A stretch of 64,000 bases of DNA from Acidobacteriaceae bacterium (lineage in GTDB: Bacteria > Acidobacteriota > Terriglobia > Terriglobales > Acidobacteriaceae). Of this stretch, positions 2,747-57,504 are shown one piece after another. A program made the position numbers and the translations under genes. Under the pieces are notes generated by a model. The model was not told the DNA's origin and did not search any database. It saw nothing but the letters and a program-made list of their open reading frames with translations. The stretch's first letter is position 1, and every line of letters begins with the position of its first letter. The stretch is from positions 11,393-75,392 of the forward strand of contig DASWOP010000250.1 of NCBI GenBank assembly GCA_036404255.1. Reading direction: 5' to 3'.

Positions 2747-2748
2747 TA

Positions 2749-3696: not shown

Positions 3697-3705
3697 CGAT
3701 CCATC

Positions 3706-4752: not shown

Positions 4753-4831
4753 GCTGTCTTCCTCCGACTTGCCCAAACTTTTAATCTCAATGCATCTACA
4801 ATCAAGACAATAACACATACAAAGCAGCAAA

Positions 4832-4852
4832 ACGAAATAAAAAATAATACGA
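4832..4852. promoter_or_regulatory. ACGAAATAAAAA + ATAATACGA motif pair upstream of the AgaS-like operon; candidate DeoR/AgaR operator
   Basis: The 12-mer ACGAAATAAAAA and the 9-mer ATAATACGA both recur at 10196-10212. The reverse complement contains TTTCGTTTT. Confidence 0.35.
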
Positions 4853-4860
4853 GATCAAGA

Positions 4861-6405: not shown

Positions 6406-6555
6406 CTGGCCATCCTCCGCAACACGGTAAATCAGACGAGGTATAAAGCATAATAAACATAATAAAAAGATAAAAAAAGAAGTAGACTACTCTAAAATCG
6501 AAGTGCGGGTAGCTTCTCCAGTGCACTACGACGCGAAATACTTGAGGGTATAGAA

Positions 6556-7635: not shown

Positions 7636-7649
7636 TAGGGATGCGCGGA

Positions 7650-8828: not shown

Positions 8829-8840
8829 AGCGGAATTTCC

Positions 8841-10139
8841 TTATGTGCGTTGAGGAACAGAATCCATCAGCCGGCAGATGCCGGCTGCAGCATAGGGCGA
8901 CAGAGCCTGCTGAATTTTAGCAATGATTAGCGCTTCAGGCGTTATCGGCAAACCTTCCTGACGTACGGCCTGATACTGCACGGGCAGTACCGCGGACAAC
9001 AGCGTCTCCGGAATCGCGACGCTATTCAGATTACTCATCAACTTATCGACCGCTGCTTGCACCGCAGCATTTCCCCAGTAATAGCGAATGCGGTCGCTGT
9101 AGCTGTAGCGGCGCAGAAGCCGTTGCTGCTCCAGCGTGCCATGATAATGCTTTGCCCAGTGCTCCGGGTAGGCAAGCATCTCGTGATCGATAATGCTACT
9201 GAGCCCGGAACACTTCTTCACGGGAAAAAGTTCTTGTTCAATCCGCTCCAGCGCAAACAGCCCCTCACGCAGGGCGAAGGTCAGAGCAGGCCCAACCTTC
9301 AGAATCGTAAACCCATCGTTTACCAGCTCAGTAAAGGCAGAGGGCCGCTGATAGTCGGTGGAGTGCGCTTCGAAGACCAGCCCATCCACATCGCGGAGCA
9401 GTTGCTGAAGCTCACCGGTCTTTGCCGAGACATAGTCTGCCACGCTGTCGTGGTTGAACTCCACACCCGGCTGTACGACCATTGCAATCACTCGCGGCCA
9501 CATAGTTGATAGACCCGCGCGGGAGAAGACTTCGTGATGGATTGCCAGCGTCTGCGCGGCACGAGCGTAGGGTGTAACTTCAAGCTCCGCCAGACCTTCT
9601 GTGGCTCCACCGGGAACAGGCACTTCGGTGCCGATTACATAGAAACGCGGACTGCCCCCACTCGCATCCTCTGCCGCACGGCACAAGCGAGCAGCGCGCT
9701 CCGCCACTACCCTGTCTGGCAATGGGTGTTGATCTCCGCTGCAGGCCATGCTGGCATCGAGATGAATCTTTGCAAATCCTGCGCGAGAGTACTCCGCCAC
9801 CATCTCCTCCGCATACTGCATCGCTTCTTCAGCAGAGAGGTGGGTCCATGTATTCGGGCCCAGGTGGTCGCCGCCAAGAATTACATGCTCGCGTGCATAA
9901 CCTTGTTGATCCGCCAAGCGGCATACAAAGTCACGGAAGTCCGCTGGGCGCATCCCACTATAGCCGCCAAACTGGTTCACCTGGTTGCTGGTCGCCTCAA
10001 CCAACAGCGGAGTCTTATCCTGCAGCGCTTGCAGAATAGCCGCCTTCAGCACAAGCGGATGCGCGGAACAAACAGAATAGAGGCCAAAAGGATGCCCTTC
10101 GCGCACTGAAGAGCTCATTCGCTGTAGGATATGGGGCAT
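8841..10139 (-). CDS. kbaZ: GatZ/KbaZ-family protein (tagatose-bisphosphate aldolase accessory subunit / tagatose-6-P 4-epimerase family)
   Basis: Near-colinear with recalled E. coli GatZ: VCSAHPLV, EATSNQVNQFGGYSGM, GGDHLGPN, KIHLDASM, GTEVPVPGG, EAHSTDYQ, ILKVGPALTFALRE. The track ORF (to 10502) overlaps the divergent gene and was trimmed to the ATG at 10139 (MPHILQ). Confidence 0.9.
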   Translation of the reverse strand: MPHILQRMSSSVREGHPFGLYSVCSAHPLVLKAAILQALQDKTPLLVEATSNQVNQFGGYSGMRPADFRDFVCRLADQQGYAREHVILGGDHLGPNTWTHLSAEEAMQYAEEMVAEYSRAGFAKIHLDASMACSGDQHPLPDRVVAERAARLCRAAEDASGGSPRFYVIGTEVPVPGGATEGLAELEVTPYARAAQTLAIHHEVFSRAGLSTMWPRVIAMVVQPGVEFNHDSVADYVSAKTGELQQLLRDVDGLVFEAHSTDYQRPSAFTELVNDGFTILKVGPALTFALREGLFALERIEQELFPVKKCSGLSSIIDHEMLAYPEHWAKHYHGTLEQQRLLRRYSYSDRIRYYWGNAAVQAAVDKLMSNLNSVAIPETLLSAVLPVQYQAVRQEGLPITPEALIIAKIQQALSPYAAAGICRLMDSVPQRT

Positions 10140-10195
10140 TGCTGAGTCCTTCTTTTCATAGTCAATCTTTATGTTTGAATACATACAAAAACATA

Positions 10196-10212
10196 ATAAT
10201 ACGAAATAAAAA
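10196..10212. promoter_or_regulatory. ATAATACGAAATAAAAA in the divergent kbaZ/amidohydrolase promoter region; candidate DeoR/AgaR operator
   Basis: Exact 12-mer and 9-mer shared with 4832-4852. The neighbouring ATAAAAAGATA recurs at 6462-6472. Confidence 0.35.
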
Positions 10213-10239
10213 GATATACAATTGACTGCAGGAGAGAAA

Positions 10240-11286
10240 ATGCCTACCGAAGATAAATTTGTTGCCATGGTCAGCGCCAAGGCAGATGTTGATCTGCCGT
10301 TGAGCGATTTTCTGCCGGTATCTGAGCTACGCATTCCTGCGCATGATCTGCAGAAGCCGCGCTTCCCTGCGATCGACTTCCACAACCACCTGGATTCCAT
10401 GGAGCCAGCAGAAGTGCTTCGGATCATGGATACGTGTGGCGTAGAAAAGATTGTGAACATCACTATGCGCACTGGCGATGAAGCGCTTAGCATCATGGAC
10501 AAGTTCCATGCGGCAGACCGCTCGCGGTTCTACTCCATTGGCTGGATGGACTGGACGGATTTGCATCAGGATGGCTTTGTGGCGCTTACACTAGAGCGTC
10601 TGGAGCAGATGGCTGAGCATGGAGCAAGCGGCATTAAATTCTGGAAAGACCTCGGACTGACCCTGACAGATAAGTCCGGCAAACTGCTGCGGATTGACGA
10701 TGAGCGACTTGCTCCAATCTTTGAGCGAGCCGCAGATTTAGGGCTTTTTGTCATGTTCCACACGGCGGATCCAGCTGCCTTCTTCCGCCCGATTGATCGC
10801 TACAATGAGCGCTACGAGGAACTTGCTGCGCATCCCGATTGGGCTTTCAGCGGCATACCCGTTGAGAAATGGGAGCTGCTAAATCAGCGCAATACGGTAT
10901 TCGGCAGACACCCCAAAACGACTTTTGTGGGCGCCCATGTGGGTGAAAGTGGCGAGGACCTCGCCTTTGTCCGGGATATGCTCGATAACTATCCCAATGT
11001 CCATATCGATATATCTGCACGTACGCCAGAGCTAGGACGCCAGCCATACACCGCGCGCAAACTCTTTATGGAATTTCCAGACCGCATCCTGTTTGGAACA
11101 GACCTGCTTCCTGAAATCTCCATGTATTGCCTTCACTATCGTTTTCTGGAGACTGCCGATGAGTATTTCGAGTATCCATCTCATGCATCTCGGCAGGGCC
11201 GGTGGAATATCTACGGCGTCTTCCTGCCAGACGACGTCCTGCTCAAGCTCTACCGGGAAAATGCATTAAAGCTGCTCAAGCGATAG
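10240..11286 (+). CDS. Amidohydrolase_2 (PF04909-like) metal-dependent TIM-barrel hydrolase
   Basis: AIDFHNHLD (HxH), FHTADP, GAHVGE and ILFGTDL blocks. ATG at 10240 is preceded by AGGAGAG; the track start at 10222 is a TTG. Confidence 0.7.
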   Translation: MPTEDKFVAMVSAKADVDLPLSDFLPVSELRIPAHDLQKPRFPAIDFHNHLDSMEPAEVLRIMDTCGVEKIVNITMRTGDEALSIMDKFHAADRSRFYSIGWMDWTDLHQDGFVALTLERLEQMAEHGASGIKFWKDLGLTLTDKSGKLLRIDDERLAPIFERAADLGLFVMFHTADPAAFFRPIDRYNERYEELAAHPDWAFSGIPVEKWELLNQRNTVFGRHPKTTFVGAHVGESGEDLAFVRDMLDNYPNVHIDISARTPELGRQPYTARKLFMEFPDRILFGTDLLPEISMYCLHYRFLETADEYFEYPSHASRQGRWNIYGVFLPDDVLLKLYRENALKLLKR

Positions 11287-12336: not shown

Positions 12337-13872
12337 TTATGCGTGAATGCTAACAAGCGCTGCACTTCCTGGCGGCATGGTAATTTTGAATTCGCTGGCG
12401 GTGGTGCGGCGTAGAATTTCCGCCCTATCTGTAGCTAGCTGGCCATCACTCCCTACGGTTGCGTTTCCAAAGCGAATGCCGGTGGTCGCTTCCAGCGCTG
12501 GGCCAGTCAGGCGTTGAACAGATGCCGTGTGGAACAACTTTCCAGTACTGAGCAACATATCCGTCGCCTGCGAACCCTTATTAAAGATAGCGATCTGCAT
12601 AGTTTTGCCTGTTGCAGTAAGCGCGGCATAGGCCGTAATAGTAGATTGCGCTTCTGAGAAAGAGCTTTCGACTAAATTTGCTCCAGCCATGCGTGCTACC
12701 AGCAGCATGCCATAGAAAATGGGTCGTGCCGAGTATCCATGACTAGCGCTGCCCGCAATAGGCGTGTAGTAGGAATCATCCGCTTCGCTTTTTGCAACGG
12801 CATCTCCAGGCATCTTGCCGCCAAGCGAGGCTCTAATCTGCCGCGCGCTACCCCCATGGAAATTGATGCCGCAAAATCCAGCCGACAACAACTTGAGCGT
12901 AAGGTCTCCGGCCCACAGAGCCGATCCCAGGGTGTTGCTTACTCCGGGTTTACCGCCGGAGTAGCAGGAATTTACTTCCGTCATGCGAAAGGGCAAACCG
13001 GCATGGTGGCCTGCTGTCGCAGTCACGTTGATCTCATGATCGATCTTCTTCGGGTTTAGTAATAAGTTTTGCATCGTCGACTCAGGGCTGGTCGGGGGGC
13101 CTTCGGCATAGAAGTGATCCGTGATTGCGACGAGATGTTGTTTCATCTCTGCAACAGCTTCGCTCGCGAAGAGATTCATCCAGGCAGCCTCTGCACCCAT
13201 ATCGGGACCAGCGAGTCTAGCCGTGGGTATACGCTTCACAATCGCACGTGCGAAACTAAGCCACTCAGCCAGATAGACCTTTTCATTCCAGGCATCTGAA
13301 CGAAGCCGGTAGCGGATGTAATTATTCGGCTCGTTGCCAATCTGAAGATACTCGAGCTTAGATCCCAATATTTCTACAACGGCCGCCGCTTCTTCGGCAG
13401 CACGCTCCGGCGTGCCCGTGCCCAGGTTCAATCCATAGATGCAGTTCCAGCCGGTTACATTCAGAAAGTGACGAAGATTGTGCAACGCAGCCGGGGTAAT
13501 AGGGGTGAGTTCCTTCGGCTGAGTCGGTTGAGGAAACCACGCTGGTGCCTCCACCGTTGCATTGGCTTTGAAGTACGTGAACTCGCTGGTATTCCCCCCG
13601 AGCCGCAAGCTGCCGCTGGGGCTGAGTGTCCGAAGAAACTGCACCAGGGCTTTGTTCGACGGAGCAAAGTATTCCGGCTCACCAAGCTGTGTGGATTCGT
13701 AACTAAGTCCCATGACATCGCGTGGAATGAAGCCCCTGTGCTGCCCGGGATGAACCTGGAGCGTGAGCGGCTGACTCATGGCAGTACCCATGCCCCACAA
13801 AGGATGTGCGGCAGCCCCGAGCATGGCAAGACTGGTCGGAGCAGAAACAAGAAAGCGGCGTCTGTTCATCAT
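12337..13872 (-). CDS. Clan GH-A glycosidase, best guess GH79 beta-glucuronidase/heparanase-like
   Basis: Tat-like leader MMNRRRFLVS. LEYLQIGNEPNNY (acid/base NEP) and FRMTEVNSCY (nucleophile TE) at the spacing expected for a (beta/alpha)8 barrel, followed by a C-terminal beta domain. Confidence 0.55.
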   Translation of the reverse strand: MMNRRRFLVSAPTSLAMLGAAAHPLWGMGTAMSQPLTLQVHPGQHRGFIPRDVMGLSYESTQLGEPEYFAPSNKALVQFLRTLSPSGSLRLGGNTSEFTYFKANATVEAPAWFPQPTQPKELTPITPAALHNLRHFLNVTGWNCIYGLNLGTGTPERAAEEAAAVVEILGSKLEYLQIGNEPNNYIRYRLRSDAWNEKVYLAEWLSFARAIVKRIPTARLAGPDMGAEAAWMNLFASEAVAEMKQHLVAITDHFYAEGPPTSPESTMQNLLLNPKKIDHEINVTATAGHHAGLPFRMTEVNSCYSGGKPGVSNTLGSALWAGDLTLKLLSAGFCGINFHGGSARQIRASLGGKMPGDAVAKSEADDSYYTPIAGSASHGYSARPIFYGMLLVARMAGANLVESSFSEAQSTITAYAALTATGKTMQIAIFNKGSQATDMLLSTGKLFHTASVQRLTGPALEATTGIRFGNATVGSDGQLATDRAEILRRTTASEFKITMPPGSAALVSIHA

Positions 13873-13985: not shown

Positions 13986-15884
13986 TCAAGGACCTACATT
14001 GACGGCAATCGGCGTAACGACTGGTGTGGCAATACCTACAAAGATAGTGACGGAATTATCACCAGAGTTGGCAGTCCATATATTACCGCTTGGATCCACC
14101 GCAATCGCGACAGGGAGACTCAGCACGCCGTATCCCGTCGCAGGTGAAACCGCGGTGCTACCTGAAAATTCCGAGATGGACGCACTATTGGCAAACCATG
14201 CCATACTATTGCCGTCGTATGCCACAGCAAGAGGCAGTGTCAGTCCGCCGCCCAGTACGGGGCTAGCTGTATCCACGGCACCTGTATTTACAGCCAGTGT
14301 GAACGCACCGGAAATCGATGCACCGGTGGTGCTTCCAGTCATGACAATCGCTCCGCTACTGTTGATTGCCAGGCCTGTACTTCCAAAAAGGAAGCCATCG
14401 CTTATGCAGTTCTGAAAGACAGCGGCACTGCTGAAGAGGCAAAGCTGCCCTGTTCCGGAGTTGGCAATGACTATGCGTCCAGTGGAATCAAGGGCAATCG
14501 CGGTGGGCTCACTGAGTGCGCCGGACCCCGTGATGGGGCTTGAGCCGCTGGGTGTACCGGATGAACTCAACTCTGTAATAGAATTGCCGCTGAAGTTCGC
14601 TACCCATGCATTGCCGACAGAATCATTGACAATCGCAACTGGCGTAGAGATGCTACCGCCGGTGAAGCCTGAACCGGAAAGCGCAGCGCCTGCGCTGCTC
14701 AACTTGACTACGCTATTACCACCAGTATTTGCGATCCACAGGTTGCCGCTACGATCGATTGAAATCCCACGTGGCGAGAGCAATCCAGCATTGCTATAAG
14801 GCGTAGTTGTGAATGAAGATGAGAGACTAGGAAACTTCACAACCGAGAAGCCGCCTTCGTTAGTTACCCAGGCATTTCCACCGGCATCAATTGCTATGCC
14901 ACCAGGACTGGTCATCTCCGATCCGGTGTAACTCACAGAGAGCGTGAAATCACCCGGCTGTGCACTGAGACCCGGAGAAAATGGTGGCGTCCCTGTGACT
15001 AGCGAATATAGTCCCGTAATAGATGAGCTACCGGGATGATTTGCCATGGCGAGTCCAGCGTCGATCGTCTCCGTAGCGCCAGTGGCGGAGAGCAGCGACA
15101 TGCAGGACACGGAGGCAGCAGCACTTGTTCCATTCACACAGGAAGCCAGGATATTGGCCAGCGTATTCAGACGCGCGACTGGAAGCGTGATGCCAGCAGA
15201 TGGCGTCGCGATCAAGCCAGTCTGAAAATTGACGAGCGTGTTGACCATATTGAACGCATTGACCAGCCCCGTGGGATTGCTTCCAGTAGCACCGACATGC
15301 GTGTAATCACCCATGAACGGAGCAAGTGCATAAACCGCGGCCACAGTTGTAAGTTCATTCAGGTTGATAAAGGTGCCCGATGTGAGCGAACTGCATGGGC
15401 CCAGCGCTGCCAACAGACCTAGCGCGGTATTGTTGCCTCCACCAGCGTTACCACCAGTCGCCGTGATGTAAACCTGTGTAGCCGATGAACAGGAGTAGTC
15501 TCCCGTGATGGTGAATTCGCCAATCGGTAATGTATTGAATGCGTTGCCAGCATTGCCACCGGTACCGGAACCATCGCTGGTAGTCACGGCGCTTGTGAGC
15601 AATGCCCTCGAAGCCGATCTCGCGCCTGCAGTACCCACAGTGTAAAGCTGAATTGTTGCACCGCTCACCGGTTGCTGTCCGCCTTTAACGCGCCCCTGCG
15701 CAATGATCGTGCTCTTCCCGCCGCTGCCACCGCCATTGTCGGCAAGCGATCGCGCGGTACCCGCACCGCAGCCGCCAAGTAGTGCGGATGCCAGCATTGC
15801 CACGCCGCCTAGCATAAGCGCTCTGGCTGAGTGAGACTGAGACTTCGCAAATGACGATATATCGTTCATAGTGTTTTCTCGCAT
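13986..15884 (-). CDS. Surface lipoprotein with CarboxypepD_reg-like domain and 6 NHL-like blades (paralog 2 of 3)
   Basis: Lipobox ALLGGCG. GRVKGGQQPVSGATIQLY. NELTTVAAVYALAPFM. Repeated GNAWVTNEGG / GNLWIANTGGNSVVKL / GNAWVANFSGNSITEL / GNIWTANSGDNSVTIF. Confidence 0.75.
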   Translation of the reverse strand: MRENTMNDISSFAKSQSHSARALMLGGVAMLASALLGGCGAGTARSLADNGGGSGGKSTIIAQGRVKGGQQPVSGATIQLYTVGTAGARSASRALLTSAVTTSDGSGTGGNAGNAFNTLPIGEFTITGDYSCSSATQVYITATGGNAGGGNNTALGLLAALGPCSSLTSGTFINLNELTTVAAVYALAPFMGDYTHVGATGSNPTGLVNAFNMVNTLVNFQTGLIATPSAGITLPVARLNTLANILASCVNGTSAAASVSCMSLLSATGATETIDAGLAMANHPGSSSITGLYSLVTGTPPFSPGLSAQPGDFTLSVSYTGSEMTSPGGIAIDAGGNAWVTNEGGFSVVKFPSLSSSFTTTPYSNAGLLSPRGISIDRSGNLWIANTGGNSVVKLSSAGAALSGSGFTGGSISTPVAIVNDSVGNAWVANFSGNSITELSSSGTPSGSSPITGSGALSEPTAIALDSTGRIVIANSGTGQLCLFSSAAVFQNCISDGFLFGSTGLAINSSGAIVMTGSTTGASISGAFTLAVNTGAVDTASPVLGGGLTLPLAVAYDGNSMAWFANSASISEFSGSTAVSPATGYGVLSLPVAIAVDPSGNIWTANSGDNSVTIFVGIATPVVTPIAVNVGP

Positions 15885-15899: not shown

Positions 15900-18800
15900 C
15901 TAGTTCAGCGTTTGCATGAACGTTTGCGTGGCCTCCCACCAGCCGGTGCTGTCATCCCATGCATAGCTCGACGATGACCAGATCACGACGCCGTCAGCAA
16001 GTGAGTATGCCGTCTGCAGTTGAAATGCCCAATATGCAGCGCTCACATACTGCCCGGCCTTGGCTGTGCCTGGGTGATACTGCGGTGAAATGTAGATATA
16101 TACCGGCTTGCCCGGCGCGATTGCACGCGCCGCAGCTACTTCCTGCGCTGCCAGCGAGGCCCATGCTGCCTGATCGTCATTGTAGGTATACATCGACGGA
16201 AACATTGCGGTTACTTGCGTCCCAAGTGCCGTGGCATATTGCATGTTCTGCGTCGAAACATTGTCGAAGGTGTTGTAGCCATAGTAGCCCACAAGTTTAC
16301 CGGGATGGTCTGCCTTAGCCCACGTAGCCAGCGTCGCCAGTATCTGCTCGTTTGCTGTCGAGGTCAGTCCAAGCAGCTCGACATCCAGAACCAGCGGACC
16401 AGGATTGGTGTACTTCGCCATCAACGTGTCAAAGGAACTACGCGTGGGTAGCGTCTGTTCATCAGCTTGGGTTGTTCCGCTGGAGTCCACCCAGATCTTG
16501 CTTTCATAGACGACGTTGGAAGTAATCAAACCGTAGGTGCTGGTAGTTGGCTTGCCCGAATAAAACATATTGTCGTAGACAACGAAGGATGTTGGCTGTG
16601 CTGTAAAGCTGCGTGTCACTGGAGTGGCAGCAGCAAAGTTCGTATTACCAGCCTGCGATGCGGTGACGGAGACCGCGCCGGTTCCTGTCACATAAAGCGT
16701 ACTTCCGCTCACAGTGGCCGGCCCGCTGGCAACAGCATATGTTGCCGGCAGGCCGCTGGTGGTATATGCAGCAAGCTGCACGCTGGTATCGTTGCTAGGA
16801 TAGTTTGCCAGTGCAGGAAAAATGATGCTCTGTGCCGCGCTTCCGGTCACACTCAGGGTCGCGCCGGTCGTCAGCGCAAAGCCATAGTTATTGGCACTGG
16901 AACTTACCAGTGTTCCCTGCGATACAGTAATGGGATAGCTGCCCACAGGCGACTTAGGCACCGCAGTTGTCGAGATCAGCGGCGACCCAGTAACGCTGTT
17001 CGCCTGTGTATCGGGAGAGATAAAGCCAGTGATTGTATAGCCGAACGTTGGGTTCGCAGTTCCGTAAATACGTGAAAGGAGGCCGCTCGGAGTAACGGTG
17101 AGCGTAGCAGTATTTACTACAATGCTTTGCTGAACAGGTGTTGCTGCAGCGTAGATGGCATTGCCCGCTTGAGAAGCTGTAATCACGACGGTGCCGGTAC
17201 CTGTAAACGTGAGCATGTTGCCGCTCAGTGTGGCTGGGCCCGTGGCATTGTAGGTAACGGGCAGGCCGGAGCTTGCCGTTGCGCCCAAGCCGATCGACGG
17301 AGCGCCGTAAGCCACCGGCGATGTAGGCGCAGGAAACGTAATCGTCTGCGCCATAGTTCCTTGGCTATATGGCTTCAGGATTCGAACCACATTGTTGCCG
17401 CTATCTCCGAAGTAAACATTACCGCTGGTATCTACTGCGATATGTCCTGTTGGTGTGGAGAGAACTGCGTTTGTAGCAACGCAACCATCGCCATAACCAT
17501 CGGTCGAACAGGCAGCTTCTGTCGTACTCGATCCACCGCCGGCAACTATCGCAGCGTTTTGCGTGCTTGCAGTCACCTCCCATATCTGGTTGGCAACTGC
17601 ATCTGCAATGTAGAGATTGTTGGACGCATCGAATCCGATACCAGTAGCACTGCTCAGCTTAATGGATGTTGCGGCAGCGGCAGTTGTGCCGCTGCCGCCG
17701 CCTGCATAGGTATAGATGTCTTTGCAGGTCGCCAACGTACCTGTGGTAGCAGTGCTGGCCATACCAGTGCAACTGGTTTGCGCCGTCGCATAGTATCCAG
17801 CGGGCGGCTGCGAGCCCAGATAAACCACGCGTACGCGTCCTGTAATAGCGCCATAATCTGCGATGTAGAGGTTGCCGTACGAATCGAATGCAAGATCATA
17901 TGGCTTGCTAAGATTGGCAGAACGTGCGGGTCCGCCATCACCGCTTTCTACTGAAGTGCAGCTAGTGTAAGTACCCTTTGAGACCGTCGCCTCCGCGCAA
18001 CCTGCTCCGGCTCCGCCTACCACTCCGGTCACATAACCAAGTGCACTTGCATTTCCAAGAGCATCGGTCGATGCTCCGGCGATGTTGATCTCGCGGACTA
18101 CATTGTTGCCGCTGTCTGCTACATAGAGATTGCCGTTAGCATCTACGGCCATCCCCTTTGGTCCGTTGAACTGCGAAAGCAGCACATATCCGCCATCACC
18201 AAAATACCCCGTACCGGGAGTATTTGAATTGATAAGAACATAGGAATAACCACTCTTCGCTGCTGTAGTACCAGCCGGTCCCGCAGAGCTTCCACCCGCA
18301 GCAAGGAAACTTGCCTGCTGTGTTCCAGCCACATATGTCATGCGAACGTAATTACTGCCTTCCTCAAAGATATTGCCGGATGCATCCACTGCAACGGCGG
18401 CAGAAGCAAATATCGTAGTGTAGCCAACTGCGCCGATCTGCGTGCTGGCAGTATATTGTCCACCGCCGATCACGTTGTACACGATATTAGGGGGTACCGG
18501 CGATGCCAGAATCGAACTGCTTGCATAACTAGCAACCAACGCCGTTCCCAGCGCAGCATTGGTTCCGTTGTAGAGCACGCGCAGCTCGCCTGTATATCCA
18601 GGACCTGGTGTGGAGCCGGTGTAGCTGTTCGCCGAAGTAGGTGTGGTATAGGTCGCACTATCACCAGTATCCGTGTTGGAGGTGTAATTTCCTCCGTCCG
18701 AGATATAAAGCTGGCCGAATGAATCGATCTGTGTCGCATTGGGCTTCGACACAAGTATCTGGCTCACGGAGCAGCCATCGCCGATATTTGATCCCAACAG

Positions 18801-19082
18801 TTTTGTAGAGGAATTGCCGTTCAGCGGAATGGAACTGGCACAGACATGAGTTACCGTGGGCGAAGTATTTGGCGTGATGCCCGGCTGACCGGCGTATGCC
18901 CCAATCGAAATCTGCGCATGCACGCCGGTAACTCCAGCCACCAATAATCCACATATTGCCATGCCTGCAATAACTAAGGATGCGCCCCTTCTACGCTTGT
19001 ATCCAGTGTTTGGCATAACCATTCTGAACCTTCCTTGCAATTCCAGCACTCCGCGGTGCTGCTCTTGAAAACATCGATTCAT
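15900..19082 (-). CDS. Secreted multidomain protein with NHL repeats, Ig-like and MBG domains, and a C-terminal GH56-like (hyaluronidase-like) domain
   Basis: Signal peptide. GNLYVADSGNNVVREI-type NHL repeats. MBG-type YGTANPTFGYTITGF...VGSYPI...NNYGF. The last 233 aa are homologous to the 29103-29975 product. Start is uncertain (19082, 19022 or 19016). Confidence 0.8.
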   Translation of the reverse strand: MNRCFQEQHRGVLELQGRFRMVMPNTGYKRRRGASLVIAGMAICGLLVAGVTGVHAQISIGAYAGQPGITPNTSPTVTHVCASSIPLNGNSSTKLLGSNIGDGCSVSQILVSKPNATQIDSFGQLYISDGGNYTSNTDTGDSATYTTPTSANSYTGSTPGPGYTGELRVLYNGTNAALGTALVASYASSSILASPVPPNIVYNVIGGGQYTASTQIGAVGYTTIFASAAVAVDASGNIFEEGSNYVRMTYVAGTQQASFLAAGGSSAGPAGTTAAKSGYSYVLINSNTPGTGYFGDGGYVLLSQFNGPKGMAVDANGNLYVADSGNNVVREINIAGASTDALGNASALGYVTGVVGGAGAGCAEATVSKGTYTSCTSVESGDGGPARSANLSKPYDLAFDSYGNLYIADYGAITGRVRVVYLGSQPPAGYYATAQTSCTGMASTATTGTLATCKDIYTYAGGGSGTTAAAATSIKLSSATGIGFDASNNLYIADAVANQIWEVTASTQNAAIVAGGGSSTTEAACSTDGYGDGCVATNAVLSTPTGHIAVDTSGNVYFGDSGNNVVRILKPYSQGTMAQTITFPAPTSPVAYGAPSIGLGATASSGLPVTYNATGPATLSGNMLTFTGTGTVVITASQAGNAIYAAATPVQQSIVVNTATLTVTPSGLLSRIYGTANPTFGYTITGFISPDTQANSVTGSPLISTTAVPKSPVGSYPITVSQGTLVSSSANNYGFALTTGATLSVTGSAAQSIIFPALANYPSNDTSVQLAAYTTSGLPATYAVASGPATVSGSTLYVTGTGAVSVTASQAGNTNFAAATPVTRSFTAQPTSFVVYDNMFYSGKPTTSTYGLITSNVVYESKIWVDSSGTTQADEQTLPTRSSFDTLMAKYTNPGPLVLDVELLGLTSTANEQILATLATWAKADHPGKLVGYYGYNTFDNVSTQNMQYATALGTQVTAMFPSMYTYNDDQAAWASLAAQEVAAARAIAPGKPVYIYISPQYHPGTAKAGQYVSAAYWAFQLQTAYSLADGVVIWSSSSYAWDDSTGWWEATQTFMQTLN

Positions 19083-19087
19083 GCTGA

Positions 19088-22000
19088 TTAGTTCGACGCT
19101 GCTACGACCAGCGTGATCGGAATCGATTCAACTGAGCCATTAGAGCTCGTGGCAGTCAGCGTAAACACCGTGGTTCCGGGCGGCGTAGTAACATTCGGCA
19201 GATCGTAGTAATTTGTCCCACTGCCGCAACCGGAGAGTCCGAGTCCGCCTAGTATCGGCAATACGCACAAGACAACCGCGAGTAGTGACTTGCGCATCGC
19301 AGCATTCCGTCGCTTGCGCCATGCCAGCAGAACCAGTCCACCCAAGAAAGTCAATCCGGCCTCAGTGACTTCAGAAACACGCCCACACTTAGCAGGAGTC
19401 TGCTGTTTCGCCAGGTTTGGCGTCACATTGGTAAACACCTCCAGCGTGAGCAAGCCAACAGGATCAGTTGCACTGTTACCACTGAATGTAAGGTTGGTGC
19501 CGGAAGGGACTGGACACGCCGAACCAGCTGCCGGAACTGATGGACAAGTCAGGAACCGGCAGAGAGAGTTCTGCGGAAGATTGGAACAGGTGAATGTCAC
19601 CGTACCGCTCAGTCCCATGTATGGCGTGACATAAACGCTGGTACTAGTCTCTGCGCCTTGCAACGTACTGAGCGTGGTAGCCAGGGCAGTCATTCCGAAG
19701 TCGCCCTTCACCGTAACTGAACTGGATGTAGATGAGAAAAAATTTGCGCCACCCAGATAGTTAGCACTAAAAGATGGATAGGTATTTGCGTTGATCGCCG
19801 TAGCAGCCAATGCCGTCGTGGCACCCGATATGGTGAGCGTAGCAACACCAGACGCATTGAGCGATGCGATACCCAGTGTGGTGGACCCAGCGCTGAATGA
19901 GACTACTCCAATGACTCCAGCTGCAGGTGATTTAACGGTTGCCGTCAACACATAAGCCGGTATTGCACTGCCCTGCACGCTGAGCGGCGCACCGGAGTAA
20001 GCGAGAGTCGTCGTGCTTGACTCAGGAATCACAGTGAGCGTCAGGCTGGCATGACTGGATACATAATTGGAATCGCCGCTATATTGCCCGGCAATACTGA
20101 ACGTACCCGCCTGCGGGCTAAAGGTATAGGTCGCGGTGCCGTTAGCAACCGTAAGCACTGTCTGCTGAATACCATTCACCTGCACTAGTATCTTCCCCGT
20201 CGCTGCCGTAGTGCCTGACTGTGTCAAAGTGAACGTAAGCGTGATGGGTGAGCCATAGCTGATTGACGAAGATGCGCTTGGCGATGAGCTAATAGTGAGA
20301 TTACTGTTGAGCAGGTTTACTCCGCTACCTGTCAGCGTTGAACTTACAGAGGAAGCATTCCCCGCGTTGGATGGGAAGGTAATCTTGTCCGAAAAACTGC
20401 CAAGTGCTACCGGAGAAAATACCGCAGAGATGCTGCATCCCGCACCAGCAATCAGAGCACTACCGGAGCATCCATTTGATGTCGATGCGCTAACCTGGAA
20501 ATCTCCAGTGTCTCCGCTGACGCTGTACGGTGCGCCGCCGGTAAATTGTAGCGCCGCATTACCAATATTGGTGAGAATGAAGGATGAGAAAGCTGAACTC
20601 TGCCCTACATTGAGAGGATAAAAGCTGGTGGATATCTGCTGACGGTTCAGGTACGTAACCCCAGCGCTAGTGTCTGTCACATAAACATTGCCTAGACTGT
20701 CAACCCAAAGTCCAGTCGGTGCAGTCAACCCAGACAGTAGGGTGACCGTGGTGACGCCCTGTGCGGAAATGAAGCCTACTTGCGATCCTGCCTTATCCAG
20801 CACATAGAAATTGTTGGCGGCGTCTATCCCTATGGCCGCAGGATTGAACAAACCGAGTGCAACCGGAGTGACCGCACCTGTCGATAACGTGACCTCAACC
20901 ACCCGGCTATTGCCTGAATCCACCACATACAGATTGCCGCTGCCATCCAGCGAAAGCTGCGTTGGACTGGAGACGCTCGTGGTCAGTACGGTGGATGCTC
21001 CCTGGCGGATCTGCATAATGCGGTTGTTGCCAGTGTCAGCAACATAGATATTGCCACCGCCATCCACCAACACTCCCTTTGGAGCAGCATAGCCGGTCAG
21101 ATATGAGACGGTTGCGCTGGTGTTGTTATAGATGGCCACACGGTTGTTCCCCGTATCCGCTACCAGCACATTGCCCTGGCCATCCACAGAAACCTGCGAC
21201 GGCGATGAAAGGCCGGTAATAAGTGATGTAGCTGTCAATGCGGTTGGGCTGGAATAGCGCAACACACTTCCGCTGGTCTTATCAGCAACATACACTTCGC
21301 CGGACGGATCGGATGTGACGCCGAGTGGCGCGGTTCCAGAGCCTACGGTAACGGGCGTCGCGTTATCCAGGGCAATCTCTGCCCCGCTTGCCGTGCCGCT
21401 CACGTAATTGGTGCCAATGGTATTGCCAGTAGAAGAGGATACTCTCACGCCACCAAGTCGCAGGCCAGGCAACGTCGGTTTGAATGTCACATTGAGGTAG
21501 CAGATCTGTCCCGCAGCTAGTGCCTGCCCGGATGTGTCACACGTGCTGCCGCCTGCATCAAGGAAATCGGAACTGGAGGCACCCTGCACGGCGAAGGTTG
21601 CACCACCCACTGTAACCGCACTGAGGGAAGCAAAAGCGAGCGCAGTGGACGAGGTGGAACCCAGAGCGGTAGATGGTGCCGCAGGCACGGACTTGGAAAG
21701 CTTGTGCACAACATTGGCGGACGAATCGGCAACATACAGATTTCCCTGCGCATCGAAAGAGATTCTACCGGTCGGGAAACCCAGAGTAGCCAGTGTAGCC
21801 AGGCAGCCATCGCCATTAGCATAAGTCCTAATGGGACCAGAAGCGAACGTGCTGGAGCACGCGGTTCCAGCCGCAGTCGATGTGCCACCACCGGCAATAA
21901 TCGTTGCCACCTGTGTGGCCGCGTCTACTTCCCAGATCTTGGCGCCAGTGCCATCAGCAATATAGAGATTGCCGGCTGCATCAAAGCCCAGGCCAGTAGC

Positions 22001-23200
22001 TGACTTCAGCAAAATCTGTGTCGCTGGACCACCCGTCGTCAAGGTGCCGCCACCGGCAACAGTATAGATATATCCCAACTGCGGGCTGCTAACGCCTGGA
22101 ATCGTACCGGTGCCGTTATAGATCACGCGAACACGTCCATTCCCAGAATCGGCAATATACAGATTGCCCGATGCATCAAACAGGACATCGTAGGGATTGT
22201 TCACTTCTGCAGACGTAGCAGGCCCCCCATCACCGATAGAACCGGCAGTGCAACCACCGGCTGAGCTAATCGCCGATGGCACCTGCACAGTAGCGCCAGT
22301 AATGGTGGCATAGGCGGAGACGACAGCCTGGGTACACACTGAGCCTGCAATCGTACTGATAATGCCTGTCGTGCCATTGATCATGCGGATAGCATTGCTC
22401 TTCGAGTCAGCGATATAAACATTCTCCGCCGAATCTACATACACTCCTTTTCCATTATTCGTTAGCGCCGCAATGGCCTTGCCGCCGTCACCGTAGTATG
22501 CGTTCAGACTGGCATAGATCATCGGATATACATTGCTCTGCTTAGGGCTGACAGTCCCAATCCCCGAAGTTGTTGCCTGTAGTAGTGCTGCCCCCTTGGT
22601 TCCTCCCACATACGCCATGCGCATGCGTGAATTACCTTCGGTCTCGATGATGTTGCCGTCGCCATCAATTGCCATGCCCGTTGGTGTGAGTGTTGTATTG
22701 CCGCAGCTTCCGCCGGCGGCAGAGATACTTGTATAGCCGTTCGAGTAGGGCCCGCATGCGTTATAAATATCACCGACAAGCAGTGATGAGGTCGTAATTA
22801 CGGATAGCTTGTTGTACGCGCTTACGATCGTCTGCAGTTCCGCTGCGCCACTCTGATAGATCACGCGAATCTGCTTGTCGCCCTGGTCGGCGATGAAGAT
22901 ATTATTCGTAGCCGGATCGATCAGCACCGACTGCGGCGCTTTCAGAATCGCCTGTGTCGGCAGACAGTTGTCCCCAGTAGAACCAACTGTTGTCGCGATC
23001 ACGGTGCTGCAGACCGTCTGCGTAGAACCGGTGGGAATGCCAACAGCCGTACTGATGTACGGAATCTGGATAGAGCCGGGGGTCTGGGCAAACGCGCCTA
23101 GACTCGCTGGTGCAAGAACCGCACACCAGAGCGCAGATCGCCACACAACTCCGCTGAACTTACCGCTATTGCCGTTTCGAGTGCCGCTACGTGGACTCAT
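19088..23200 (-). CDS. 1370-aa secreted NHL-repeat protein with choice-of-anchor-D/HYDIN-like and Ig-like domains and an unusual C-terminal TM hairpin
   Basis: Signal peptide ...ASLGAFAQ. Many GNLYIADSGNGRVRVIY / GNVLVADTGNNRVAIY / GNIYVADTGNNRIMQI repeats. C...C...V.F.P motifs (GQICYLNVTFKP, GAGCSISAVFSP). Confidence 0.85.
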   Translation of the reverse strand: MSPRSGTRNGNSGKFSGVVWRSALWCAVLAPASLGAFAQTPGSIQIPYISTAVGIPTGSTQTVCSTVIATTVGSTGDNCLPTQAILKAPQSVLIDPATNNIFIADQGDKQIRVIYQSGAAELQTIVSAYNKLSVITTSSLLVGDIYNACGPYSNGYTSISAAGGSCGNTTLTPTGMAIDGDGNIIETEGNSRMRMAYVGGTKGAALLQATTSGIGTVSPKQSNVYPMIYASLNAYYGDGGKAIAALTNNGKGVYVDSAENVYIADSKSNAIRMINGTTGIISTIAGSVCTQAVVSAYATITGATVQVPSAISSAGGCTAGSIGDGGPATSAEVNNPYDVLFDASGNLYIADSGNGRVRVIYNGTGTIPGVSSPQLGYIYTVAGGGTLTTGGPATQILLKSATGLGFDAAGNLYIADGTGAKIWEVDAATQVATIIAGGGTSTAAGTACSSTFASGPIRTYANGDGCLATLATLGFPTGRISFDAQGNLYVADSSANVVHKLSKSVPAAPSTALGSTSSTALAFASLSAVTVGGATFAVQGASSSDFLDAGGSTCDTSGQALAAGQICYLNVTFKPTLPGLRLGGVRVSSSTGNTIGTNYVSGTASGAEIALDNATPVTVGSGTAPLGVTSDPSGEVYVADKTSGSVLRYSSPTALTATSLITGLSSPSQVSVDGQGNVLVADTGNNRVAIYNNTSATVSYLTGYAAPKGVLVDGGGNIYVADTGNNRIMQIRQGASTVLTTSVSSPTQLSLDGSGNLYVVDSGNSRVVEVTLSTGAVTPVALGLFNPAAIGIDAANNFYVLDKAGSQVGFISAQGVTTVTLLSGLTAPTGLWVDSLGNVYVTDTSAGVTYLNRQQISTSFYPLNVGQSSAFSSFILTNIGNAALQFTGGAPYSVSGDTGDFQVSASTSNGCSGSALIAGAGCSISAVFSPVALGSFSDKITFPSNAGNASSVSSTLTGSGVNLLNSNLTISSSPSASSSISYGSPITLTFTLTQSGTTAATGKILVQVNGIQQTVLTVANGTATYTFSPQAGTFSIAGQYSGDSNYVSSHASLTLTVIPESSTTTLAYSGAPLSVQGSAIPAYVLTATVKSPAAGVIGVVSFSAGSTTLGIASLNASGVATLTISGATTALAATAINANTYPSFSANYLGGANFFSSTSSSVTVKGDFGMTALATTLSTLQGAETSTSVYVTPYMGLSGTVTFTCSNLPQNSLCRFLTCPSVPAAGSACPVPSGTNLTFSGNSATDPVGLLTLEVFTNVTPNLAKQQTPAKCGRVSEVTEAGLTFLGGLVLLAWRKRRNAAMRKSLLAVVLCVLPILGGLGLSGCGSGTNYYDLPNVTTPPGTTVFTLTATSSNGSVESIPITLVVAASN

Positions 23201-23221: not shown

Positions 23222-26200
23222 TTAATAAGAGAGCTTCAATGAGAGTTGGATGCGGCGAGCATTGGTGCCAACAGTATTACCGCCTGTCGTTGCCAGCACC
23301 TGGCCTTCATAGTCGACGCCAGAAGTAGGTGGCAGCGACGAGTTCGGGTTCGCGAGGTTAGGCGTATTGAAAGCATTGATAGCATCCGCACGGAAAGCCA
23401 GCCTCGTAGTATGCGTAATCGGCAACCGCAAGGTACGCCCAGCGGAGAGATTGAGCTGGATAAATGCAGGCCCACGCAGCCTATTACGGGATTGGTTACT
23501 GAAGACGCCTGCCGCGGTTCCATTCGGCGGAACAACCCAGGCTGCGGTGTTGAACCATTCACTAATCTTGTCAGCGCGATGCCGACCGCTGGACAACGTG
23601 CCTTTCCCATACCCAGGCAGCAACTGGGCACGCTGGCGGCTACCTACTTCAGCCGTAAATGCCGCATCAGTCGTTAAGGTAACCGAGAAAGGCTTGCCAC
23701 TCTGCGCCGTGTACATGCCACTCTGTGTCCAATTGCTCAGTAAAATGCGCAGCGGGCGAGGGCCGTGACTAAACTTGGTTGGCAAAAAGGCCCAGCCTAC
23801 AGCAGTGGTCAGCTTTACGTCATAATCCGAAGGCCCATGCTCGCTGCTCAAATTGTCTATCTGTGGAACACTGCTTGACGTCGACGTACCAGTACTAAAC
23901 TCATCCAGCGACTTTGCGTATGCAAAGGTCGCGGTTAGAGAAACAATCTTTGCCCCACGCTCCTGGTAGAGCACCTGCACACCGTTATAGCTGGAGCTGC
24001 CAATGCTCTGGTATTCCACCACGCCCTGTCCGCCATAGTTAAAGCCAGGATAGCGGACCCGCGCGGCATACGATGCGGCCGTATTCGCACCTGTTGCCGG
24101 ACAATAGAGCGATGGATTGATCTGGTAGTACGCTCCAGTGCAATCGTAGATAGCTGGGTTCTTATCCAACGGTAGTGACTGATGACGTCCGAAACGTCCG
24201 ACGTAGTTCACCTCAAGCGAACCATGGCGCATGATGCTCTGCTGGAAGCCGAAGTTAACGGCTTCTGTATAGCCATCGCGATAGTTTCTATCCGGAAAGA
24301 AGATGGAAAATGGAAGATTGAACTGAGGATTGGTCCCGTCGTAGTTCTTGGGAATAGCCGGCAAACCCAGCAGCGGCTGGGATACGCCGCCTGAAGGATA
24401 GGCGTAATTTGCAATGTAGTGGAAGGGTTCTCCAACGCCAATTGTGAGCGCATTGGTCGCATCGTAGAAGATGCCAAATCCGCCGCGCACCGACGTTCTG
24501 CCATTACCGAAGAGATCATACGCAAAGCCGAAGCGAGGCGCAAAATCCTTATACTCGTTTTTGATTAAGGAGCGCGGAACTCCAGGGTCCCCAACGAATG
24601 CGAGATCCGGCACGGCGTTGGGGAAGATGACGGACTGATAGCCGGGGATGAAAGTAGTGTTCTGGTTCTTTGGCTGGTAGTAACGGAATGGAAGCTCGTA
24701 TCGCAGGCCAATGTTCAATGTCAGGCGAGGTAGAATGCGCCAATCGTCCTGTGCATAAAAATAGAAGTCATGTTGAATGCCGGAGCGGTTAAGTGAATTG
24801 GCGAAGTTTTCATTACTGGGCAGACCGAGGATCTCATCGCCCTGCGATACCAGGGAATATGTTCCGCTGAACGAGAACACGGGCGCGCTCTCTGAAACAT
24901 TCGCATACTGCAGCCGGAGAAAATCGACGCCAAATTGCGCGTTGTGCTTACCTCGTGACCAGGTCAAAGTATCCACAGCTTCTACATCTTCATTCACCGT
25001 GGAAGAGACCGCCTGGTTGGCCGTACCCATACCAGGAAAAACCGGCAGTACAGCTATGGAGTTATAGCTGGGAAAAGCCGCACCGAAATCCGACAATGTT
25101 GTGTGATCGATGGGTGAGTACTGGTAATCATAGCGCTTGTAGGCAAGACGGAATACGTTGAGCAGGTTGGGGCGAATGACCCAGGTATCACCAATGTCTC
25201 CGAAGTACGTTCCACCGTAATCCGCATCCGGTTCATAGCCGGCAACCGACGCATTCGTAGCCGAGACTGCGTTGTGCGCCAGTATATCGTTCGCTGAGGT
25301 CTGGTAGTAGCGCGCATCCAGCGTGTGGCCGTAGCCAAGATTGTAATCCAGGCGCAAGAGACCATTCTGGTCATTCTGTGGCAAGGAATAGGCCGTCGGC
25401 GTTTTGGTGGTAGGCGTGCCGTTGATGGAGGTCGCAATTGCGAGTGGCAGGTACTTCTGCATAGCTGCGAATACTACGGGATTGATACATATCGACGGAA
25501 GTTCATTGCCGACAATCGTCACCGCTGGCGAAGCCTTGCTCAGTGCAGTCTGCAGCAGTTGAACGCAGGGCGAATTCTGACCAGTGGCAAGCGTGTTCCC
25601 TGCCTGCACATACGCCGCATTCAAACCGGCAATGGCTACGGTTGAGGTGCTTGCCGTGGTTGCATTGGAGATGGGGTTATGTAGGTAGGTTTGTGGATTG
25701 CCGCTGGTATCGCGATAGGTTGGACCGGCGAGATCTGATAAATTGATGCAGTTTCCCGTACCCGCAAAATAGCCGGTGGAGGAACACGGAGTCGGGTTGC
25801 CGTTTGCGTCATAACCACGATCTGCCGCAGTAAAGCCGCCGCTGGTGACATTATTGTTCGCCGTCTGTGCGATGCGGAGACCTTGATACGAGCTGAAAAG
25901 GAAGAGCTTATCGCGGACGATGGGGCCACCGACAGTAATGCCGTACTGGTTCTGAATGAGCTTGGAGGGATGTTTGAGGAAGTAGTCCTGCGCGTTCAGA
26001 GCAGTGTTCTGCAAGTATTCATACAGTACGCCGTGAAACTGGTTGGTCCCGGACTTTGTAATCGCATTGAAAACGCTGCCCACGTTACGGCCATATTGGG
26101 CCTTGAAGTTATTGAGCAGTACACTGACTTCCTGTAGAGCATCTGGCGGAGGAAAATTCAGGCCGCTATTGGTATAGAGATTGTTCCACATCGTACCGTC

Positions 26201-33437: not shown

Positions 33438-33451
33438 GCAGGAGGCATCAC

Positions 33452-38770: not shown

Positions 38771-38777
38771 GACTGGA

Positions 38778-49775: not shown

Positions 49776-49797
49776 TCCTTCCCTTTACTTGCGCGTG

Positions 49798-56369: not shown

Positions 56370-56382
56370 AATCACCGGACCA

Positions 56383-56422
56383 AATACGGTGTGCCGGATT
56401 AGCTGGCACACCGTATTTTTCT
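56383..56422 (+). terminator. Rho-independent terminator AATACGGTGTGCC-N9-GGCACACCGTATT followed by a T-run
   Basis: 13-bp perfect stem followed by TTTTTCT, 14 nt after the receptor stop codon. Confidence 0.85.
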
Positions 56423-57474: not shown

Positions 57475-57504
57475 CCGCGCATCGGGAAGAGCATACAGGG
57501 AAAG

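Follow-up and report, generated by a model that had tools for sequence, protein, structure and literature searches.

We analysed a stretch of 64,000 nucleotides from an Acidobacteriaceae bacterium (GenBank assembly GCA_036404255.1, contig DASWOP010000250.1, positions 11,393 to 75,392 of the forward strand); this whole stretch is called the window, and positions are counted from its first letter. On its minus strand lies a run of genes that encode, in order, an MFS porter, a TonB-type barrel, a protein with NHL and Big_3_5 domains, the fusion protein with which this work is concerned, an NHL lipoprotein and a GH79 protein. The fusion protein carries, behind NHL and MBG domains, a C-terminal module that resembles the GH56 hyaluronidases. 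A preliminary description of the window had proposed that this protein is a cell-surface endo-glycanase with its own binding platform.

The maximal open reading frame (ORF) of the fusion gene (15900..19082, minus strand) has 1060 codons, as that description had counted; the protein itself is probably about 1040 residues long, since M21 is the likely start. There are three candidate starts, at 18962, 19022 and 19082. The ATG at 19022 (M21) has a ribosome-binding site, AAGGAAGG, 8 nucleotides upstream and results in a normal signal peptide, and the alignment of an orthologue, P0136, begins at M21. The start given at NCBI is M41 (18962), for a protein of 1020 residues; an M41 start would cost the signal peptide its positively charged n-region. 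The database protein P0385, which is identical to the window fusion, is named ‘MBG domain-containing protein [Acidobacteriaceae bacterium]’ at NCBI. By inspection, residues 21-56 (18915..19022, minus strand) make up a Sec-type signal peptide without a lipobox, with a KRRR n-region, a hydrophobic core and the end VHA-Q, and the orthologues have equivalent N-termini.

The domains that follow on the minus strand were assigned from Pfam matches and structural models. Residues ~58-575 (17358..18911) form an NHL-repeat beta-propeller region, based on Pfam scores for NHL (44.6 bits, cut-off 20) and TEN_NHL (54.1 bits, cut-off 27.1), on the model and on fold matches. The best Foldseek matches of the propeller are the teneurin NHL domain, the designed protein Pizza6, PknD and the TRIM NHL domains, and phmmer sequence matches in the PDB are the same set; by sequence and model, the propeller thus appears to resemble interaction-type NHL domains and not known enzymes. 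A hidden enzyme in the NHL part, for example a propeller-type lyase, was considered and is unsupported, since sequence and fold matches are all to interaction-type NHL domains. The propeller is followed by a first immunoglobulin (Ig)-like beta-sandwich (‘QTITFPAP...’, residues ~580-660, 17103..17345, limits approximate), which is all-beta in the model and has no Pfam match, by an MBG_2 (YGX-type) domain (residues 661-740, 16863..17102; PF18676 at 50.4 bits, cut-off 25), which is detected in the orthologues P0136 and P0168 as well, and by a second, all-beta Ig-like domain (‘AAQSIIFPAL...SFTAQ’, residues 749-829, 16596..16838). The NHL, TEN_NHL and MBG_2 matches bear out the NHL and MBG domains that had been described in the N-terminal part.

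The full-length AlphaFold model, in which residues are counted from M41, has a predicted local distance difference test score (pLDDT) of 77.5 overall. The beta-rich propeller region (model residues ~18-535) is of low confidence in places before ~260 and mostly of high confidence later, with a pLDDT of 80-96 in most 10-residue blocks from 260 to 530; model confidence is low in the N-terminal third of the propeller. The first Ig-like domain (~540-620) is modelled at ~80-88, the MBG domain (~620-700) with low confidence, the second Ig-like domain (~720-788) at 77-89 and the barrel (790-1020) at 85-97 by 10-residue blocks.

The GH56-like barrel module itself comprises the last 231 residues (830-1060; 15903..16595, minus strand), as identified by AlphaFold, Foldseek and profile comparisons; the C-terminal module of the preliminary description is thus real, but it does not begin at 16601. 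Using an alignment of 59 module homologues (A1), AlphaFold2 predicted seven strands alternating with seven helices with a pLDDT of 94.6 and a predicted template modelling score of 0.91, which agrees with the TIM-like barrel that had been expected. The proposed likeness to GH56 is found at the level of structure: the four top matches of the module in a Foldseek search of the PDB are all GH56 hyaluronidases, with 1fcq first (E=9.3e-11), then 1fcu and 2j88, all from bee venom, and fourth the wasp protein Ves v 2 (2atm, E=2.3e-8). Their TM-scores on the query are 0.65-0.68, at only 14-17% identity, and the next matches, to generic TIM barrels, start at E=2.4e-5, more than 1000-fold weaker than the GH56 set.

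The relationship to GH56 is also found between sequence profiles. A search of the PDB with the family profile returned GH56 chains only (2atm at 2.6e-4, 2pe4 at 3e-3 and 9jub at a marginal 0.058), and comparison of A1 with a profile of 28 insect GH56 sequences (A2) gave a probability of 97.8% (E=1.2e-12) over 229 columns, that is, over the whole module. When A1 was aligned by hhalign with the single bee sequence (confirmed to be 100% identical to 1fcq_A), the C-terminal half was aligned correctly and the N-terminal half, including the D-x-E motif, was mis-registered; A2 was therefore built, and it resolved the register. Single sequences compared with the GH56 profile gave weaker matches, restricted to the C-terminal part, with probabilities of 90% for the module and 78% for a paralogue at 29103, and a single-sequence phmmer search of the PDB with the module gave a chance match only.

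The residues on which GH56 catalysis depends have counterparts in the module. All six sequence blocks that had been quoted for it lie in the last ~230 residues of the product, on the minus strand: LVLDVELLG (16368-16394), KLVGYYGYN (16272-16298), AMFPSMYTY (16182-16208), PVYIYISPQY (16077-16106), SLADGVVIWSSSS (15966-16004) and GWWEATQTF (15918-15944). In the profile-profile alignment, GPLVLDVE of the module falls on GVGVIDFE of GH56, so that the putative catalytic pair D900-V-E902 (module D73/E75; 16377..16385) corresponds to bee D111/E113; the two codons, GAT at 16383-16385 and GAG at 16377-16379, are where they had been placed. Likewise, the GYYG block falls on WGYYAYP, with Y934 equivalent to bee Y184, the FPSMY block on LPSVY, with Y965 equivalent to bee Y227, and DGVVIWS on DGFIIWGS, with W1035 equivalent to bee W301; in the bee enzyme, these aromatics line the pocket for the acetamido group. 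The three aromatics of the module (span 15978..16283, minus strand; Y934 at 16281-16283, Y965 at 16188-16190 and W1035 at 15978-15980) are conserved in 57, 59 and 59 of the 59 sequences in A1, respectively, and invariant or near-invariant residues lie in the GYYG, FPSxYT, KPVYxYxWPQYH and DGVVIW blocks. The D-x-E motif is kept in the homologues, with Glu in 59 of 59 and Asp in 58 of 59, and both are present in all eight fused orthologues, which retain LD[VI]E and the remaining catalytic blocks down to 46% identity.

A divergent, stand-alone paralogue of the module is encoded on the plus strand at 29103..29975 (290 residues, with a signal peptide and no Pfam match). The two are related at significant E-values, as had been claimed: BLASTP aligns them with E=2e-9 at 29% identity over the C-terminal 139 residues only, and the family profile A1 matches residues 21-288 of the 29103 protein with a probability of 97.4% and E=1.2e-11, placing its ‘SFDTE’ under ‘VLDVE’ of the module. 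The preliminary description had let its reading stand or fall with the barrel fold, the relationship to the 29103 product and the D-x-E motif in homologues; every one of these checks was run, and the module passed each.

The fusion architecture is genuine. The NHL domains, MBG domain and module are retained together in eight clusters of proteins at 90% identity (46-100% identity to the window protein), drawn from independent NCBI, JGI, ENA and Logan assemblies, and a full-length protein search gave the window product itself (P0385, on a 140-kb contig) and, from independent metagenomes, fused orthologues at 85, 83, 75, 73, 73, 68 and 46% identity. Homologues of the scaffold that lack the module (P0391, P0392 and P0393, 815-878 residues) all end in ‘...FTAQ’ followed by a stop codon; at the same point, after Q829 (last base 16596), which closes the second Ig-like domain, the window protein reads on as ‘...FTAQ-PTSFVVYDN’. 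In stand-alone relatives the mature module starts at the equivalent ‘F-x-V-Y/F-D-N’. The junction is in frame, and no remnant of a signal peptide or intergenic region is found there. Because unfused scaffolds and stand-alone modules meet at this junction, we conclude that a mature module was appended to an older NHL-Ig-MBG-Ig scaffold and has been maintained since. A rough neighbour-joining tree, which has no support values, unites the fused modules with the stand-alone proteins nearest to them (P0001-P0005) in one subclade; within it, seven fused members are monophyletic and the eighth, P0168, is adjacent to the stand-alone P0002. The unfused scaffold P0391 is accompanied by another NHL protein and a GH29 fucosidase (L081:8001-12328), which suggests that NHL-MBG scaffolds serve different glycan systems.

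The preliminary description knew of no characterised enzyme with this architecture. That holds for the combination of NHL, MBG and GH56-like parts, but the module belongs to a large family whose members usually stand alone. Among 5.8 billion proteins, 192 matched the module, the best at 64% identity, and identity in the family ranges from 33 to 64% over the whole module; among the matches listed (120), lengths are 160-380 residues and most appear to be stand-alone. Their sources are Acidobacteriaceae, Planctomycetota and, with an LPXTG anchor in some cases, Streptomyces and Kitasatospora; among them are P0050, an LPXTG-anchored Streptomyces protein, and P0067, named ‘hyaluronidase [Planctomycetaceae bacterium]’ at NCBI. 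An exhaustive profile search of 1.84 billion cluster representatives gave 2336 matches at E≤1e-3, the weaker of which may include canonical GH56, and 703 at E≤1e-30. Sixteen of the best 150 of the 2336 are longer than 450 residues, and only P0136 (1035 residues) and P0168 (973 residues) combine NHL, MBG_2 and the module; the other long members carry PKD/DUF1349/Big_2, Laminin_G_3, Flg_new_2 or Wzy_C domains or the module in duplicate. Only one small clade, within Acidobacteriaceae, has the NHL-Ig-MBG-Ig-GH56-like architecture.

When genomes representing species were scanned, 161 relatives of the module were found in many phyla, with many in Nitrospira and often in tandem pairs. The peptide patterns of the scan miss the variants KPVYIYISPQ and VTAMFPSMYT found in the window, and the fused proteins came from the protein searches; since the patterns miss the motif variants of the fused clade, the scan is uninformative on the spread of the fusion. 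Two GH56-like genes lie a few kb apart in L031, L040, L042, L054 and L065, mostly Nitrospira, and in P0121 and P0122 a single polypeptide contains the module twice.

The members of the family closest to the fusion have neighbours of a particular kind. P0003, a stand-alone protein at 57% identity, is encoded in a run of GH20, HGSNAT_cat and GH56-like genes (L087:6465-10735), and the gene of the stand-alone P0001 is followed directly by that of a TonB-type barrel. Since HGSNAT_cat denotes the catalytic domain of heparan-alpha-glucosaminide N-acetyltransferase, the pairing in the P0003 run resembles the breakdown of glycosaminoglycans in lysosomes. With such uptake or catabolic settings, this closest subclade looks different from most of the family.

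In the window, the fusion gene is embedded in a tightly spaced run on the minus strand. The MFS sugar-porter family transporter (26938..28611) is followed by the TonB-dependent-type outer-membrane barrel with CarboxypepD_reg, Plug and OMP_b-brl_4 domains (23222..26854), which heads the run. After the barrel gene, the gaps are, in order, 21, 5, 15 and 113 nucleotides: the 1370-residue NHL + Big_3_5 protein, which has a signal peptide (19088..23200), stops 5 nucleotides ahead of the maximal ORF of the fusion; an NHL protein of 632 residues with a lipoprotein-type N-terminus (ALLGGC; 13986..15884) begins 15 nucleotides downstream of it; and last comes the GH79 beta-glucuronidase homologue (12337..13872), which in a PDB sequence search matches the Acidobacterium capsulatum beta-glucuronidase (5g0m, 3vny) with E=7e-91. 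The TonB-type barrel forms a conserved block with three NHL-propeller proteins, of which one is a lipoprotein, and NHL proteins may be glycan-capture components of acidobacterial uptake loci.

Genes for carbohydrate catabolism flank this run on both sides. On the plus strand, at 33395..35791, lies a gene for a GH20 beta-N-acetylhexosaminidase with C-terminal CHB_HEX_C_1 and Fn3_assoc domains, based on Pfam, and a weak CBM6 match below the cut-off. At 1787..11286 the flanking catabolic genes include those for an aldose epimerase, a PfkB kinase, a SIS deaminase-like protein and an Amidohydro_2 protein, a sulfatase (4861-6405), an alginate-lyase-fold protein (6556-7635), a GH88/GH105-type unsaturated uronyl hydrolase (7650-8828) and AgaZ/KbaZ (8841-10502), which scores above the TIGR02810 cut-off; there are two DeoR regulators and, in all, two SIS-domain deaminase-like proteins. 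Matches to NagA-like, NagK-like and SIS-deaminase-like proteins nearby are weaker and fall below the cut-offs, which for NagA and NagK are those of NCBIfam. The longest ORF of AgaZ/KbaZ (553 residues, TTG start) overlaps the divergent Amidohydro_2 ORF (10222-11286), its Pfam match begins only at residue 126, and its L085 orthologue has 451 residues; the true start is therefore probably about 100 codons further in.

This arrangement is conserved. The whole gene order recurs around an orthologue of the fusion at 83% identity (L085, L086), and the core of MFS porter, barrel, NHL protein and fusion recurs around P0168, at 46% identity (L083). Taken gene by gene, the MFS transporter, the barrel upstream of the fusion and the 1370-residue NHL protein are conserved in L083 and L085, the 632-residue NHL protein in L085 and L086, and the position of the GH79 gene in L085; the order from Amidohydro_2/KbaZ to the sulfatase is identical in L085 and L086. 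In the position equivalent to the 29103 paralogue, L085 has a gene for 291 residues without Pfam matches, which from its position we take to be the orthologue. A scan of 12-30 kb for promoters and terminators found sites in numbers fewer than, or no more than, those in shuffled sequence, and so gave no information.

From the fold, the conserved residues and the neighbourhood, we consider it probable that the fusion protein is a secreted, retaining endo-beta-N-acetylhexosaminidase that acts in the uptake and catabolism of a glycosaminoglycan-like polymer. The module, whose enzymatic activity is predicted from its sequence and model, would hydrolyse beta-linked N-acetylhexosamine (HexNAc) with retention and substrate assistance, as in GH56, with E902 as the acid/base and the 2-acetamido group as the nucleophile, held by D900, Y934, Y965 and W1035, and it would cleave inside the polymer chain. 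The substrate may be a chondroitin- or hyaluronan-like polymer of glucuronic acid (GlcA) and HexNAc. The protein presumably acts at the cell surface, where the propeller would be a binding platform for the polymer; through its propeller, Ig and MBG part the enzyme may stay attached to the polymer, or belong to a complex with the TonB-type barrel and the NHL proteins encoded nearby. Fold, homology, synteny, conserved residues and the fusion itself support the identity and architecture given in the preliminary description, whose cell-surface location and binding platform are reasonable suggestions. The oligosaccharide products would be imported via the adjacent barrel and dismantled by the GH79, GH20, sulfatase and unsaturated-uronyl hydrolase enzymes, and the released sugars would enter amino-sugar and tagatose catabolism; the 29103 paralogue could work on this material too, as an untethered enzyme. 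When a GlcA-HexNAc polymer is cut in the GH56 manner, the products carry GlcA at their non-reducing and HexNAc at their reducing ends, so on established chemistry the neighbouring exo-enzymes would suit them.

A number of observations weigh against this reading. Neither the module nor the 29103 protein matches the Pfam family of GH56, PF01630, even at E≤10, and scans of both with Pfam and NCBIfam yielded no useful match at thresholds as loose as E≤10 or E≤1. Of the 59 relatives, 27 reach PF01630 at E≤0.01, the sole family that recurs among them, and L062, L020 and P0226 score 36.2, 35.8 and 38.2 bits against a gathering score of 23.2; because these relatives reach PF01630 and the module does not, its link to GH56 is transitive or at the profile level only. 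The module contains no Cys, whereas four cysteines are invariant in the insect alignment A2, and its ~230 residues fall short of animal GH56 by about 100, as several loops and the long insertion that follows the catalytic Glu are missing. Moreover, it has Ser999 (16086-16088) where 52 of 59 homologues have Trp (KPVYxYxW-PQYH), so the cleft may differ. Since it is short, free of Cys, below PF01630 and has Ser in place of this Trp, we treat the module as part of a compact bacterial branch of the GH56 superfamily and not as a canonical member. Inspection of the fusion protein found no lipobox and no recognisable surface-anchoring or C-terminal sorting signal, the latter because the module extends to the stop codon. 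Pfam scans of the neighbouring ORFs gave no SusD-family match, and the literature searched holds no activity data for any member of the bacterial GH56-like family. The best PDB match of the ‘GH88’ ORF (7650-8828) is 4ce7 (E=2e-62), an unsaturated 3S-rhamnoglycuronyl hydrolase of ulvan degradation; this neighbour does not indicate hyaluronan or chondroitin specifically, and hints that the substrate of the locus may contain sulfated sugar-uronate units other than the classical glycosaminoglycans. Finally, the family is most often found among genes that make or export exopolysaccharide: 43 of 79 family loci have a Wza-type exporter, Wzc or an exosortase within 10 kb, so that most of the family probably processes self-made exopolysaccharide, and a tblastn search with 21 window proteins found the catabolic genes of the window almost never in the 79 loci. 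As these genes are not beside other members, the substrate of the window cannot be transferred from the family; on the same search, the window context was set aside as a guide to the function of the whole family.

In the profile alignment, the family Trp at the Ser999 column faces bee W267, and Ser999 is common to four of the eight fused proteins, including that of the window.

The foremost alternative is that fold and chemistry are as proposed, that the substrate is another beta-HexNAc polymer and that the uronate and sulfate genes serve another or more complex substrate; we judge this unlikely, though it is the most likely of the alternatives. Chitin or chito-oligomers, peptidoglycan, teichuronic-acid-like wall polymers, poly-N-acetylglucosamine and HexNAc-rich exopolysaccharide would be candidates. 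Substrate-assisted chemistry through the 2-acetamido group is established for GH18, GH20, GH56, GH84 and GH85, and the D-x-E chemistry needs only a 2-acetamido sugar at the cleavage site. The distance of the module from characterised GH56, Ser999, the ulvan-related match of the GH88-family neighbour and the very varied genes that adjoin family members all leave room for such a substrate. However, the GH79 beta-glucuronidase homologue is encoded in the same tightly spaced run, independent assemblies show synteny of the fusion with GH20, the sulfatase and the amino-sugar genes of the tagatose branch, and together the neighbouring enzymes are the exact set to finish GlcA-HexNAc oligosaccharides from a GH56-type cut.

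It is still less probable that the enzyme serves to trim or remodel exopolysaccharide or capsule made by the bacterium itself, in matrix turnover or control of chain length, as the module seems to do in most other lineages, and not to feed on external polymers. The exporter, Wzc and exosortase genes of the family loci are what this alternative draws on, as is the setting of a Nitrospira member (L062, gene 9899-10798), around which lie genes for an exosortase (EpsH), glycosyltransferases, a heparinase II/III-like protein and a polysaccharide exporter. A Wza/Wzc cluster of Acidobacteriaceae holds another family member, the member in L020 lies at 9629-10768, and L044 (8249-10753) and P0248 combine the module with a Wzy_C polymerase-like membrane domain. 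In the window, by contrast, no glycosyltransferase, flippase, Wza, Wzc or exosortase was found among the ORFs scanned, from 241 to 44,676; the uptake, hydrolase, sulfatase and catabolic genes and the DeoR repressors are conserved with the fusion; and members of its subclade in the neighbour-joining tree (no support values) adjoin GH20 or TonB-type barrel genes.

We give very little weight to the idea that the module is a dead, lectin-like remnant which only binds glycans, in a protein that is an adhesin or glycan-capture protein. Binding-type domains make up the remainder of the protein, and for some animal members of GH56 the activity is reported to be low or undetectable; the Asp, the Glu and the three pocket aromatics are nevertheless kept in every fused orthologue down to 46% identity, the pattern expected of an active enzyme. 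That the fusion is an artefact of assembly or a frameshift joining neighbouring genes would fit the nearly universal occurrence of family members as stand-alone genes (230-450 residues), but eight clusters from four sources of assemblies share the same continuous architecture with a clean, in-frame junction, and we reject this explanation as having a negligible chance of being correct.

The proposed endo-beta-N-acetylhexosaminidase can be set beside several known systems. Animal and venom GH56 enzymes (1FCQ from bee, 2ATM, the wasp Ves v 2, 2PE4, human HYAL1, and 9JUB, PH-20; PF01630) share the fold, the D-x-E motif and the pocket aromatics with the module. The bee hyaluronidase is described as a (beta/alpha)7 barrel, and the module too has a seven-strand barrel in its model. 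The animal and venom enzymes are ~330 residues long and the module ~230; it is bacterial, fused to NHL, Ig and MBG domains, and without the four invariant insect cysteines, which form disulfides in the bee enzyme. Uncharacterised bacterial GH56-like proteins (~250-330 residues) belong to the same family as the module and have the same conserved residues; they are mostly single-domain secreted proteins, many in exopolysaccharide loci, whereas the NHL + MBG form is limited to the Acidobacteriaceae clade.

The locus as a whole has two counterparts. The polysaccharide utilisation loci of Bacteroidota likewise combine an endo-enzyme, a TonB-type barrel, beta-rich (lipo)proteins, exo-glycosidases, a sulfatase, a transporter and repressors. 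They differ in that here there is no SusD-like match, the barrel is of the acidobacterial CarboxypepD_reg/OMP_b-brl_4 type, NHL propeller proteins stand where binding proteins would be expected, and a surface location is presumed; the locus works like a utilisation locus and is not a member of the SusC/SusD type. In the lysosome, hyaluronan and chondroitin are broken down by HYAL enzymes, beta-glucuronidase, beta-hexosaminidase and sulfatases. The same enzyme classes occur in the window: two GH56-like proteins, a beta-glucuronidase homologue (of GH79, not GH2), GH20 and a sulfatase, to which the P0003 locus adds the HGSNAT_cat protein. The window system is bacterial and linked to import, and the analogy is a tentative one; since a lyase-fold protein and an unsaturated-uronyl hydrolase are present, the route need not be purely hydrolytic.

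Bacterial GH56-like genes are already known at the level of annotation, as PF01630 catches about half of them, weakly, and one is called hyaluronidase at NCBI. The catalytic part of the window protein is invisible to annotation, because the NCBI name mentions only the MBG domain, and Pfam and NCBIfam do not recognise the module. A 2024 review places GH56 in mammals and venoms and describes bacterial degraders of hyaluronan and chondroitin as mainly lyases, and a preprint lists GH56 among the carbohydrate-active enzyme families expanded in genomes of soil Acidobacteria. In the literature searched (bacterial GH56; Acidobacteria, exopolysaccharide, horizontal gene transfer, NHL with TonB), no characterised bacterial member of GH56 was found; one match to ‘GH56’ was the unrelated name of an archaeal isolate and was discarded.

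More ambitiously, the fusion protein could be the first catabolic bacterial enzyme of the GH56 type, the scaffold-tethered endo-acting head of a lysosome-like and largely hydrolytic pathway (a GH56-like cut, then GH79, GH20 and sulfatase, on chondroitin- or hyaluronan-like polymers) that feeds a TonB-dependent importer of soil Acidobacteriaceae, with NHL proteins as SusD-like binders and the bacterial family ancestral to animal hyaluronidases. We put this forward only tentatively, as clearly less likely than the endo-beta-N-acetylhexosaminidase function itself. The catalytic machinery of GH56 is retained, in a minimal, disulfide-free barrel of ~230 residues, by a large bacterial family that spans phyla, and one clade has recruited this barrel, via a propeller/adhesin scaffold, into a conserved operon for uptake and catabolism. 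If active, the module would be a small hydrolase of the hyaluronidase/chondroitinase type that can be expressed in bacteria; it would suggest that abundant soil bacteria break down amino-sugar/uronate polymers by hydrolysis, provide the many NHL-repeat proteins beside acidobacterial TonB-type transporters with a role that can be tested, and raise the question of bacterial roots for animal hyaluronidases.

Two other groups of genes lie further along the window. A second apparent carbohydrate cluster (48912-64000) encodes a GDSL esterase, an AraC regulator, an EamA transporter, a second CarboxypepD_reg/OMP_b-brl_4 barrel (52647-56369), a second GH88-family hydrolase (58729-60015) and an 802-residue and two ~684-residue proteins, all three without a Pfam match. 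At 39830-41774, a methyltransferase gene comes directly after that of a type III polyketide synthase (chalcone/stilbene synthase-like), and this pair adjoins a histidine kinase/response regulator pair (37664-39453).

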